A DNA stretch of 16,674 nucleotides from a virus (taxonomy: Duplodnaviria; Heunggongvirae; Uroviricota; Caudoviricetes). The translations under genes were made by a program, and so were the position numbers. Positions within the stretch are counted from its first letter, which is position 1. Every line of letters starts with the position of its first letter. The stretch is from the IMG/VR virus record IMGVR_UViG_2778261169_000001, positions 1 to 16,674 of that record. One strand, written 5' to 3'. The notes under the pieces were generated by a model, which was not told where the DNA came from, made no database searches, and saw nothing but the letters and a program-made list of their open reading frames with translations. Positions 4,877-8,325 of the stretch are shown here, piece by piece.

Positions 4877-5227
4877 TTAACTCAGTGGAAGGGTGATAGA
4901 AAAAGGCTGGCCTGATGCCGAACGCGTGCCGGTCATATCGACGTACATCGCGCCGTCATCCTCTCCGCGTTCAACGGTGATGGTCGACAAACTGACGCGC
5001 GGTTCCCACCTCTGGATCGCGGAGTAGCACGCGGCCATAATCTGCAGACGCAGCGCCGGGGTCTGCGGCTGGTCAATCAGTGCAGACAACAGCGAGCCAT
5101 ATTCGCGGCGCATGACGCGCGAGCCCACTGGCGTGACCAGAATGTCGCGCACGCTTTGCCTGATGTGCTCAACTTCAGAAATACTGAGGCCGGTCTGGCT
5201 GTTCATTCCCAGATAACGCACCGTCAT
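4877..5227 (-). CDS. W: Baseplate protein W (P2 gpW-like, GPW/gp25 family)
   Basis: Start trimmed from the 171-aa track ORF to the internal ATG at 5227-5225 (MTVRYLGMNSQTGLSISEVEHIRQSVRDIL...), giving ~116 aa as for P2 W. This ATG overlaps the V stop codon (ATGA). Confidence 0.8.
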   Translation of the reverse strand: MTVRYLGMNSQTGLSISEVEHIRQSVRDILVTPVGSRVMRREYGSLLSALIDQPQTPALRLQIMAACYSAIQRWEPRVSLSTITVERGEDDGAMYVDMTGTRSASGQPFSITLPLS

Positions 5228-5865
5228 TTGACCCCCTTCGTCCAGTTTCCGCCCGGCTCCACGCCACCATGATCGTGGGCATCGACCTGCACGCCGTTTG
5301 AGGTAAATTTCCCTTCGGTGTGCTCGATGTTCCCCGACATCGTCCCGCCTTTTTTCACCTCGAGCGTGCCGGTGATGAGCTTGTTGGTACACACCACCTC
5401 GGGAGTATCGAGGGTAATGCGGGTTTCGGCTTTCACTAGCACCACCGGCACGATGGCGGTAATGGACTCCGACGCGGTAACGTCGGCGGTTTTAATACCG
5501 GATACGGTGAGCGCCCCGTTTTCGGGTTCGTACTCGATAACCGCCCCGTCAGGAAAAGTGACGTGAAACGCATCGGACGAGGCCGACGGCGCAGGATGGT
5601 CATCAGAGAAAATGCCGGGCAGCACAAAGGCTGTGTCCAGCTCGCCACCAATGGCAAGAATGAGCACCTGCTCGCCAACAGAAGGAGCCCACCACACCCG
5701 CGAGCGGCCGGCGCGGCAGGTCAGCCAGTTAAGCCAGGTGGTTTGCATCCCGCCGGTCTGTACACGACAAAGCCCCTCGACGGGGTCGACGTCGGTCACA
5801 ATGCCGGTGCGGATAAGGTTGCGGATCGCCCGAGCGATTTCCTGTAAAGAATTTAAATTATTCAT
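5224..5865 (-). CDS. V: Baseplate spike/assembly protein V (P2 gpV-like)
   Basis: Start set at ATG 5865-5863 (MNNLNSLQEIARAIRNLIRTGIVTDVD...), which aligns with the P2 V N-terminus and gives ~213 aa (P2 V is 211). The longer track ORF from 5964 would add 33 residues drawn from the AT-rich island. Confidence 0.85.
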   Translation of the reverse strand: MNNLNSLQEIARAIRNLIRTGIVTDVDPVEGLCRVQTGGMQTTWLNWLTCRAGRSRVWWAPSVGEQVLILAIGGELDTAFVLPGIFSDDHPAPSASSDAFHVTFPDGAVIEYEPENGALTVSGIKTADVTASESITAIVPVVLVKAETRITLDTPEVVCTNKLITGTLEVKKGGTMSGNIEHTEGKFTSNGVQVDAHDHGGVEPGGNWTKGVK

Positions 5866-6128
5866 GTGGAAAGGATGCCGACTGGAAAGGCTAGTGGCAA
5901 TCAAGTGGAGTTTTATGGGAGATGAAACAACAATTATCAGCTTTAAAATATCAGTATAATTCATCCCATTAGATTAATGAGAGCCACATAAAGGATTTAT
6001 CAAATAGCAAAACTTAGAAATGAAATAAATCTCATAGACATTTCATCATGATATAAAATTATTTTCCGAACCCTTACCAAAGCAGATATGGGGCTAAATT
6101 ATCAAACAGCCCCACGAATATTAAAACA

Positions 6129-6707
6129 TTATTTTCCACAAACCATATTATCTATCGCAGCCATATAGGATACAAACAGATCTACATAACCACTTACGTC
6201 AGTGAGACTAATATCATTTGCATTGTCGTTATGATGAATAATGTTATTTCTCTTTACAACCACTGCATTCACAACATCCTTATTCGCATTAAATTCCGCC
6301 GAATTCAAAAGATTAACACCCAAATAAGAAAATGCCTTAATCGTCTTGTAAGGATTACCAGACAGGCTATCCGACACCTCACTTTTCTCAACCTTTAAAT
6401 CAGCATCTATATATTTCAACTCCTTATCTTTAACATCTTTTTTGACTCGCCAAAGCAAAAAATTGTGTGGCAAGCAGGCTGCTTTGAGCCTGCGATTGAT
6501 GGTATCGCAGTGCCATGTTGCAACCTCAGTCAAATACGACTCTAAATAAGTGCAGAGTGTAATAAGATACGATTTAACAAAAAAATTAATGTTCTTATTG
6601 AAGAATTCATTTTCCTCAAGGATAGCCTGTTGCTCCGTCTCCTTAATAATTTCTTTTAAGGATAAAAATAATGAACGATATCCATCATAGTATTCAGTAT
6701 TTTCCAT
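6129..6707 (-). CDS. Hypothetical protein with C-terminal R-x4-H motif (possible HEPN-type RNase), second gene of the island pair
   Basis: 192 aa from ATG 6707-6705 (the track starts 3 nt upstream at a TTG). AAGGAAG lies 6 nt upstream; the start overlaps the upstream gene's 3' end by 14 nt. Motif VVKRNNIIHHND at residues 151-162 is encoded at ~6231-6251. AT-rich codon usage. Confidence 0.6.
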   Translation of the reverse strand: MENTEYYDGYRSLFLSLKEIIKETEQQAILEENEFFNKNINFFVKSYLITLCTYLESYLTEVATWHCDTINRRLKAACLPHNFLLWRVKKDVKDKELKYIDADLKVEKSEVSDSLSGNPYKTIKAFSYLGVNLLNSAEFNANKDVVNAVVVKRNNIIHHNDNANDISLTDVSGYVDLFVSYMAAIDNMVCGK

Positions 6708-7743
6708 CAATAACTTCCTTAAGAAGTGCCACCCAACTAGCCCTACGCTTCATCACCGAACTCTTATTCTGTAGCCCACCTGATAAAGTTTTTTTGAACT
6801 CAGCACTTGAACAAAGAGTAAACCAAGCATTCCGTATTTGTTCGGACTTTTCATTTACAATATCATCATTTAACTTGCCAATTGTAGGCATTAAAATGTC
6901 ATAATGAACTAACCCTTTACGTTTTCTCCTAACTGTAGGGTTTGTAAATACATCTTCACCAAATATTTTTTCACACTTAGATAATGATGTTTTGAATCTC
7001 TCCCTCATAATATTCAGTTCATCATCTTTTAAGTCTGAAAATTTTTCCATATGATCATCCAAGAATTCTTTCAAGGAGCTATCAAAGTAATCAAAAAAGT
7101 TATCTTCATAAAATGCAAAAAAACGCAAAACTTGTTCGTCTGGCTCACGACTATCTCTTTTTACTGTAGTTGTTTCCGCCAAACCAAAATTTTTAATGGC
7201 ATCAATATTACCTAACTCTTCTAATAATTCATCAAACCCTCCCGGATATAACGCATGTCTTATTTCTTGATCAGAAAGTTTAACTGCCCCCTGATTGAGT
7301 CTAGAAAATATCTCTCTTATTAATTTTTTGGGATTTTCTTTTCTTAGAACAATGCATCTTATTGTTGTCGACTCTAACTCTGAACGTAGAGATCCTAATT
7401 CAGAAAACTTTTTCCCTTCAAGCTCTTTAAATGTAGTCATTCCCTCCAAAGCGAACTCGTCATCAAAAAATTTCTGTATTGTGGTTAATCGCTGAACACC
7501 ATCAATTACAATATGATTGCCGCTATCATCTTCTGCAAAGTAACAAGATGGAAGAGGAATACGCATTAAACAAGATTCAATGAATTTTGAAGATCGCAGC
7601 CATCCGTCCTGATCCCATTTGTACTTTCTTTGAAAGTCTGGATTCAGTTTTAGTTTGATGGGATTGGACTTCATCCTAGAACATAAAGTCTCAAATGGAT
7701 AATCTATGGGGAATAAATTCAATGTTTTATCATCGTTAGACAT
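6694..7743 (-). CDS. DUF262 (ParB-like/GmrSD N-terminal domain) protein, no recognisable nuclease domain
   Basis: 349 aa; ATG 7743-7741 with AAGGA 7 nt upstream. DUF262 hallmarks: NPDFQRKYKW (aa 35-44), IVIDGVQRLTT (DGQQR-type motif, aa 78-88, DNA ~7489-7503) and IFSRLNQGAVKLSDQEIRHALY (F-x-R-x-N...G...L...E, aa 145-166). The C-terminal ~170 aa is helical with no HNH/DUF1524-like His-Me motif that I can see. Confidence 0.75.
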   Translation of the reverse strand: MSNDDKTLNLFPIDYPFETLCSRMKSNPIKLKLNPDFQRKYKWDQDGWLRSSKFIESCLMRIPLPSCYFAEDDSGNHIVIDGVQRLTTIQKFFDDEFALEGMTTFKELEGKKFSELGSLRSELESTTIRCIVLRKENPKKLIREIFSRLNQGAVKLSDQEIRHALYPGGFDELLEELGNIDAIKNFGLAETTTVKRDSREPDEQVLRFFAFYEDNFFDYFDSSLKEFLDDHMEKFSDLKDDELNIMRERFKTSLSKCEKIFGEDVFTNPTVRRKRKGLVHYDILMPTIGKLNDDIVNEKSEQIRNAWFTLCSSAEFKKTLSGGLQNKSSVMKRRASWVALLKEVIDGKY

Positions 7744-7800
7744 GCTTCAATCCTTGTAAGTAAAAGCTTAAAAAATCAACGAGGTAGCAGACAACAACAA

Positions 7801-7829
7801 TATTTACCATTTTTTATGATTAAGGTCAA
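7801..7829 (-). promoter_or_regulatory. Candidate sigma70 promoter for the island genes
   Basis: On the minus strand: TTGACC (7829-7824), 17-nt spacer, TGgTAAATA extended -10 (7809-7801). Lies in the 135-bp S-to-island intergenic region, about 55 nt upstream of the DUF262 ATG. Confidence 0.3.
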
Positions 7830-7878
7830 AAGGTCGGTAAGCTAGGATTCGTCTTATGAGACTTGCAACCGTAAATAG

Positions 7879-8325
7879 TCAATTTAGATGTTCAATAACC
7901 AATTTTTCAATCAACAAATTGTCTCCAAAGTCAACACCAAGCAACTGCCGTTCTGGGTATTGCACGTCCTGAGCATGTGGGTTTGGCCGGTCTTTAAGTC
8001 CGAGCTGATGAATCTGAGCAATACGTTGCACCTTGCCGGTAAACTCGACCACCGCTGCATCATCGCGGCCTCTGGCTTTCATGTAGCGGTTCGTTCGCAA
8101 CTTCTGAAACATCGTCCGCTTAATACGCCCTTTCTTCGCTCTGAGCGGCTGGCGTTTTCGCGCCTGATACGGCGTGCCATCAGGCGCTTTTTGCTGTTTG
8201 ATGCGTTGCTGTTGCGATCTGCGCAGTTGCTTTGCTATTTCAGCGGCCAGCTTACGCCGACCCGCCGGTGATATTGCCGCAATCAACCCCGCAAGTTTGT
8301 CATCAAAAGGCTTAAATTCATTCAT
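7879..8325 (-). CDS. S: Tail completion protein S (P2 gpS-like)
   Basis: 148-aa ORF (P2 S is 150 aa) directly downstream of R with an 8-nt overlap; ATG at 8325-8323; basic N-terminal half typical of gpS. Confidence 0.85.
   Translation of the reverse strand: MNEFKPFDDKLAGLIAAISPAGRRKLAAEIAKQLRRSQQQRIKQQKAPDGTPYQARKRQPLRAKKGRIKRTMFQKLRTNRYMKARGRDDAAVVEFTGKVQRIAQIHQLGLKDRPNPHAQDVQYPERQLLGVDFGDNLLIEKLVIEHLN

Follow-up and report, generated by a model that had tools for sequence, protein, structure and literature searches.

A predicted HEPN ribonuclease and its ParB-like DUF262 partner form a probable PD-T4-2-like module in the orf30 slot of a P2-like prophage

[quoted passage not shown] One member family, RiboL-PSP-HEPN, was described in 2013 as having a conserved R-x4-6-H and as occurring 'in operon with ParB' (Anantharaman et al. 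2013, PMC3710099). A functional screen has since yielded PD-T4-2 from E. coli ECOR65, a system labelled 'DUF262, HEPN' (Vassallo 2022, PMC9519451). PD-T4-2 protects E. coli against T4 when carried on a plasmid, and its deletion from native ECOR65 sensitises the strain; its HEPN component, PD-T4-2B, was assigned to PF18735 via HHpred, and an H127A mutant was built, with the mutated residues stated to be essential (PMC9519451). The residue in question, H127, is the histidine of R122-N-A-A-A-H127. On the DUF262 side, three motifs have been defined (QRxxxW, DGxQR and FxxxN), and RNase effectors have also been predicted for Menshen, a system with a DUF262-type sensor (PMC12065111).

The window analysed here, a 16,674-nucleotide stretch of DNA, is the late region of a P2-like prophage, and carries portal, terminase, capsid, lysis, tail completion, baseplate and tail fibre genes (gene names follow those given by RefSeq to L001, an E. 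coli locus of 100% identity). Among these late genes, and on the (-) strand, lie a gene for a 349-aa ParB-like DUF262 protein (6694–7743), which is NsnA/PD-T4-2A-like and has no nuclease domain, and a gene for a 192-aa HEPN protein (6129–6707), the same as RefSeq WP_029392305.1. By fold, family and motif conservation, the product of the latter is a predicted stand-alone HEPN ribonuclease of the RiboL-PSP family.

Residues 17–190 of the HEPN protein map to positions 3–190 of the 191 in Pfam PF18735 (HEPN_RiboL-PSP) by hmmscan, with a score of 65.2 bits (E=9.8e-18; the curated gathering threshold is 28.4 bits). A total of 145 relatives were found among 5.8 billion proteins, and PF18735 is present in all 120 of those among the matches listed. 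An HMM search of 1.84 billion cluster representatives returned only 153 members of the clade, every one of them a stand-alone protein of ~190–215 aa or a fragment thereof; judged by these searches, the clade is compact and discrete. PHROGs holds no family for the HEPN protein, and NCBIfam no model for either it or the DUF262 protein.

The AF2 model of the HEPN protein (pLDDT 92.3, pTM 0.87) consists of four helices, at residues 5–29, 40–77, 137–159 and 168–190, with an insert between helices 2 and 3. R153-N154-x3-H158 terminates helix 137–159 and is followed by the loop to helix 4, with a polar residue directly after the arginine. An earlier, sequence-only reading of this DNA had described a helical protein whose motif occupies the C-terminal part, the usual HEPN location; the predicted all-helical structure bears this out, and puts the motif where HEPN proteins canonically have it, at the end of helix 3. 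A Foldseek search against the PDB gave nothing significant (best E ~1, to HepT and Csm6), and the nearest solved folds are the HepT toxins 5yep, 7ae2 and 8xdj. Searching all PDB sequences with the profile of the HEPN alignment produced zero matches, i.e., no close relative with a solved structure.

The predicted catalytic motif, R153-N-N-I-I-H158, is encoded at 6234–6251 (-) and forms the C-terminal end of core helix 3 (137–159). Translation of 6129–6707 (-), which includes ...VVKRNNIIHHND..., places the R153 codon at 6251–6249 and the H158 codon at 6236–6234; these codons fall inside the interval of ~6231–6251 that the sequence-only reading had given. R-x4-6-H occurs once in the protein. In composition-matched shuffles of the HEPN protein (n=20,000), R-x4-6-H arises in 26%, R-x4-H in 9.7% and R-N-x3-H in 0.9%. 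Because shuffles yield R-x4-H in 9.7% of cases, the bare motif is weak evidence on its own and is not significant; it is conservation in homologues that argues for its being real. In an alignment of 40 HEPN sequences, with identity down to 44%, R153, N154, H158, H159, N160 and D161 are invariant. R-x4-H is located in the C-terminal half of 193 of the 199 homologues that are 150 aa or longer, and the remaining six are truncated or frameshifted. The assignment of the motif to the R-N-x-x-x-H variant of the HEPN signature had been made from the letters of a single sequence, and had been tied to the motif being kept in homologues; the invariance of R153, N154 and H158, and the retention of R-x4-H in 193/199 homologues, agree with it on both points.

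A second conserved constellation lies in helix 2, where the codons for K45 to E56 (6540–6575, (-) strand) specify invariant K45, C52 and E56 (K-x6-C-x3-E) in the same 40-sequence alignment. E56, invariant and located in helix 40–77, is a candidate for the acidic residue that helix 2 contributes to HEPN active sites.

The HEPN gene is closely joined to the gene upstream of it. At the junction (6694–6720, (-) strand), an AAGGAAG Shine-Dalgarno sequence (6720–6714) sits 6 nt ahead of the HEPN ATG (6707–6705), which precedes the DUF262 stop codon (6696–6694), giving the 14-nt overlap with a separate ribosome-binding site that had been recognised earlier. The overlap suggests translational coupling of HEPN to the DUF262 gene. 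An overlap of 8–23 nt is found in all 13 orthologous loci in which the start codon could be aligned. Moreover, in 22/22 loci, drawn from species-representative genomes, the HEPN gene is directly preceded by a DUF262 orthologue with 54–69% identity to that of the window (one of these orthologues is interrupted by a contig end, and another is split). These loci come from Gamma- and Betaproteobacteria, Cyanobacteria, Planctomycetota, Verrucomicrobiota, Bacteroidota and Desulfobacterota, and an all-against-all comparison of the ORFs that flank the pair in the 22 loci detected no third conserved gene. The identities of the two proteins to their counterparts in the window correlate (r=0.87), with DUF262 the more conserved (mean identity 61%, versus 46% for HEPN). 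On these comparisons, DUF262 and HEPN form an obligate, self-contained and horizontally mobile two-gene unit. The earlier proposal of a HEPN effector with DUF262 as its sensor or regulator is in keeping with the 22/22 synteny and with the DUF262 plus HEPN make-up of PD-T4-2. One P. aeruginosa locus (L030) is seemingly without the HEPN gene; its DNA is identical to that of a second locus (L031), and the gene is merely uncalled.

Scans for a promoter or terminator belonging to the island itself gave counts at or below the shuffled expectation. A GGGGCT-N12-AGCCCC inverted repeat is present at 6090–6113 (-), 16 nt past the HEPN stop codon, and is followed by ATATCTGCTTT. This hairpin could be a weak terminator of the module; the scan rejected it as a terminator, its loop being too long and its T-run too short.

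The 349-aa partner belongs to DUF262/GmrSD_N (PF03235, E=4e-23), its sole Pfam match. It contains motif I, QRxxxW, as Q38-R-K-Y-K-W43 (7615–7632), motif II, DGxQR, as D81-G-V-Q-R85 (7489–7503), which is the predicted NTP-binding centre, and motif III, FxxxN, as F146-S-R-L-N150 (7294–7308), all on the (-) strand; the three are invariant in 21 and in 35 orthologues. The best PADLOC match is NsnA (6.6e-80; residues 15–345 on positions 51–383 of the 385 in the model), and PD-T4-2_A is matched at 9.5e-43 (model positions 45–354 of 363). Since both matches are near full length, the protein is taken to consist of a ParB-DUF262 domain plus a helical ParBDB-type domain, and to have no nuclease domain. 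We predict that it is a DNA- and NTP-dependent sensor-regulator.

Two further observations concern this partner. Its N-terminal ~165 residues are almost invariant across the orthologous loci (L002–L023). In one of these, from a Candidatus Competibacter MAG (L015, 3543–6014), the DUF262 gene is split into ORFs of 213 and 541 aa: the 213-aa ORF has the DUF262 domain, while the 541-aa ORF consists of ~375 initial residues with no Pfam match and ~160 final residues that match the C-terminal domain. The split could reflect an insertion or a domain replacement.

How does the pair compare with PD-T4-2? The reference PD-T4-2 operon was located in complete E. coli genomes through its published 50-nt lambda-red primer, and is present in 17 of 5,426, versus 30 with the DUF262-HEPN island. 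The likenesses are extensive. Both systems are co-oriented adjacent pairs in which a DUF262/ParB-like gene precedes a small stand-alone HEPN gene (PF18735). Homology of the A proteins extends along their whole length, with 28% identity across 322 aa (BLASTP E=4e-30). Both B proteins have R-N-x3-H together with the helix-2 K-x6-C-x3-E; in the PD-T4-2B family the invariant residues are K32, C39 and E43, spaced as are K45, C52 and E56. Lastly, both systems are cargo of P2/P4-type mobile-element hotspots. The slots themselves differ, with P2 orf30 occupied here and P4 psu-int by PD-T4-2. In E. coli 2009C-3133, for example, PD-T4-2 (L024, 8001–9603) adjoins ssrA and is carried by a P4-like satellite, in its psu-int hotspot.

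The differences concentrate in the HEPN proteins. The one described here has 192 aa, as opposed to 167 aa in PD-T4-2B, and carries a longer insert between helices 2 and 3 (E-to-R spacing of 97 versus 79 residues). Against PF18735 it scores 65 bits and PD-T4-2B 31 bits, and both pass. Compared directly, the two align by BLASTP at E=0.01, and their family profiles align by hhalign at E=0.003 with a probability of 10%, in each case over helix 2 only. None of the three PADLOC PD-T4-2_B models matches the window's HEPN protein at E<=1, whereas reference PD-T4-2B matches the three at 8e-64 to 1e-32. The profile-profile match being weak and local, we do not claim sequence-level homology to PD-T4-2B past the shared Pfam family and motif constellation, and the HEPN partner belongs to a separate clade from PD-T4-2B. 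Because the B proteins are so distant, functional transfer from PD-T4-2 rests on the architecture and the shared Pfam family. On these grounds, the module is probably PD-T4-2-like in architecture and mechanism, and falls outside PADLOC's own definition of that system. RNase activity and toxicity of the HEPN protein, like a defence role for the module, are predictions.

Several other described systems share parts of this arrangement. As in the RiboL-PSP-HEPN family at large, nearly the whole Pfam model is covered, R-x4-H is kept and the ParB operon association applies; the endoribonuclease L-PSP domain after which the family is named is not fused to these proteins. Menshen (NsnABC) has the same NsnA-type sensor architecture of ParB-DUF262 plus ParBDB. 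However, the genes for the NsnB ABC-ATPase and the NsnC inPIN effector are absent here, where HEPN and then V lie downstream. PD-T4-2A itself matches PADLOC NsnA (1.6e-58), so the NsnA model is generic for such sensors. With NsnB and NsnC missing, and PD-T4-2A matching NsnA as well, an assignment to Menshen was rejected.

GmrSD, BrxU and SspE likewise have an N-terminal DUF262 domain with QRxxxW, DGxQR and FxxxN, and BrxU is the best structural match of the 349-aa protein. They differ in that the DUF1524 His-Me nuclease is lacking here and the effector is a separate predicted HEPN RNase, so that RNA, not DNA, is the predicted target. A GmrSD-type enzyme was rejected, since Pfam detects PF03235 alone in the 349-aa protein, and PF18735 in its partner. 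The HEPN protein also departs from HepT-MntA, in that its partner is no nucleotidyltransferase, sequence identity is 9–14% and ~60 residues are inserted between helices 2 and 3; a HEPN-MNT toxin–antitoxin (TA) pair was rejected on finding DUF262 as the neighbour and no nucleotidyltransferase Pfam match. Finally, a type III TA or AbiF-like system was rejected: the region 5800–8000 matches no Rfam family and lacks meaningful tandem repeats, and the repeats found there, considered as a possible RNA antitoxin, are at chance level only.

The pair occupies a low-GC (~34–37%) cargo segment of ~2 kb (5939–7936), delimited by the GC profile and by homology breakpoints, in surroundings of about 52–62% GC. 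Upstream lies the homologue of P2 gene S (virion morphogenesis/tail completion; 7879–8325, (-) strand) and downstream that of P2 gene V (baseplate assembly protein V; 5224–5865, (-) strand), both named after the RefSeq annotation. Homology to sister prophages with other cargo stops at 5933/5938 and restarts at 7937, in the 3' end of S, so the cargo replaces everything from the pV promoter region to the last ~19 codons of gene S; as homology restarts only at 7937, those last ~19 codons were exchanged along with the cargo. In P2, the S–V interval contains the O-operon terminator, the non-essential orf30 and the pV activator site (P2 map), and it is one of three regions of P2-like phages long known for horizontally acquired genes (PMC3091744, PMC6823313). 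The swapped end of S includes a promoter-like TTGAAA-18-TAAATT (7910–7881) and a 16-nt tandem repeat (7891–7920), neither of which is statistically supported.

The 30 of 5,426 complete E. coli genomes that carry the island have the RefSeq label 'HEPN domain-containing protein' for its smaller product. They are among 52 complete E. coli genomes that share the S/R and V flanks; in 29 of the 30 the island is at least 99% identical, and the other 22 of the 52 contain unrelated cargo of several sizes. Two of these alternative cargos are a 328-aa hypothetical protein encoded on the late-gene strand (L028, 1074–2060) and a 543-aa hypothetical protein encoded on the opposite strand (L029, 1042–2673). 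No Pfam or PADLOC match was obtained for either of them or for P2 orf30. In 2022, two defence hotspots of P2 were described, and the orf30 slot is neither of them.

The island is itself a site of insertion in a few strains. IS5-family insertions occur within it in 3/30 genomes (among them L026, NZ_CP157243.1, and L027, NZ_CP021175.1). In two of them IS903B separates V from the HEPN gene, at the pV promoter region. Strain 5CRE51 has ISKpn26 at the 5' end of its DUF262 gene, whose annotated length is 1029 nt instead of 1050 nt; this insertion possibly silences the module.

The same module is found on other elements. A Pantoea agglomerans P2-like prophage carries it in the classical hotspot 1, which is bounded by replication gene A and the portal gene (L036, 6001–7624). 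The two Pantoea proteins show 85% and 73% amino-acid identity to those of the window, and nucleotide identity (74.7%) extends only over window positions 6162–7756, i.e., the two genes without their flanks. In Stenotrophomonas the module adjoins an integrated filamentous phage, and in P. aeruginosa it lies beside small phage-like genes. A compact module that moves between cargo slots of different mobile elements is the pattern of anti-phage systems (PMC9519451).

Our preferred explanation, to which we assign a probability of roughly 70%, is that a stand-alone HEPN RNase (R153/N154/H158 plus E56) is coupled to the DUF262 protein as a PD-T4-2-type mobile defence module in the orf30 slot. In a lysogen, the DUF262 protein would keep the HEPN protein inactive. 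Upon infection by another phage, the NTP-dependent ParB-like domain of DUF262 would sense the phage DNA, possibly as modified or foreign, and license the HEPN protein to cleave tRNA, mRNA or rRNA; the active enzyme would probably be a dimer with a composite site. Cleavage would be metal-independent and leave a 2',3'-cyclic phosphate; translation would then halt, and the superinfecting phage would be blocked. We infer from the comparisons above the sensor role of DUF262, its interaction with HEPN, the RNA target and the outcome, be it abortive infection or direct immunity.

Three other explanations appear less likely than this one. HEPN proteins often serve as toxins of TA systems, and the pair could be mainly an addiction module, in which HEPN is the toxin and DUF262 a proteic antitoxin that together stabilise the prophage or island. 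The HepT toxins being the closest solved folds, the overlapping and strictly co-inherited genes, and the movement of the pair between mobile elements would all suit such a role. A 349-aa partner with three invariant NTPase/DNA-sensing motifs is, however, unlike a simple antitoxin, particularly as it is more conserved than the would-be toxin (61% versus 46%); nor is it the MNT nucleotidyltransferase that defines HEPN-MNT pairs, and the architecturally equivalent PD-T4-2 gives protection from phage. We therefore regard a mainly addictive function as unlikely, while noting that TA behaviour and defence are not mutually exclusive and can coexist. Still less probable is a reversal of roles, in which DUF262 is the true effector (a type IV-like nuclease/NTPase that acts on modified phage DNA) and HEPN a non-catalytic subunit that binds nucleic acid or regulates. 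The protein lacks a DUF1524/HNH or other nuclease domain, has PF03235 as its only Pfam domain and ends at 349 aa; that R, N and H of the HEPN motif never vary speaks for a catalytic HEPN protein, and it is the HEPN histidine that PD-T4-2 needs for protection.

The position of the module, between two late operons and in the same orientation as S and V, also raises the idea that it serves the lytic cycle of the prophage itself, through host takeover or RNA turnover in late expression; no terminator was detected after S, and hence read-through from the O operon is possible. Against this stand the copies outside P2 late operons (between gpA and portal in Pantoea, and in chromosomal and filamentous-phage contexts), the sister prophages that carry unrelated cargo instead, which makes the module dispensable for the phage, and a tblastn search in which the HEPN protein had no match in 50,697 sequenced phage records. 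Of the three, we consider a role in the lytic cycle the most improbable.

Beyond the PD-T4-2-type defence module that we favour, a bolder and distinctly tentative reading, which we would not bet on, is that the clade differs in function from PD-T4-2 as a 'type II' relative, having a trigger and an RNA target of its own, that the orf30 slot is a third defence hotspot of P2-like phages, and that the alternative cargos are new anti-phage genes.

Much of what is reported here was already known: RefSeq applies the label 'HEPN domain-containing', the family and its ParB association date from 2013, and the architecture was validated as defence in 2022. The sequence-only reading was right in its inference, and the outcome is sound annotation rather than discovery, which leaves current concepts unchanged. 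What is new, modestly, is a deep and widespread sister clade that goes undetected by the PADLOC v2.0.0 models tested, and its carriage in the orf30 slot, where further unknown cargo sits.

In practical terms, a moron found in 30/5,426 complete E. coli genomes can now be given a confident label as a predicted HEPN RNase effector with a ParB-like sensor, and PADLOC v2.0.0 can be seen to have no B-component model for a PD-T4-2-like clade that spans at least seven phyla. The compactness of the clade, its strongly conserved motifs and the high-confidence HEPN model make it a reasonable second model system for DUF262-RNase switching. In addition, the presence of several alternative cargos in the S–V (orf30) slot offers a cheap search ground for more defence genes; if the 'type II' reading were true, the 328-aa and 543-aa cargos would be new anti-phage genes.
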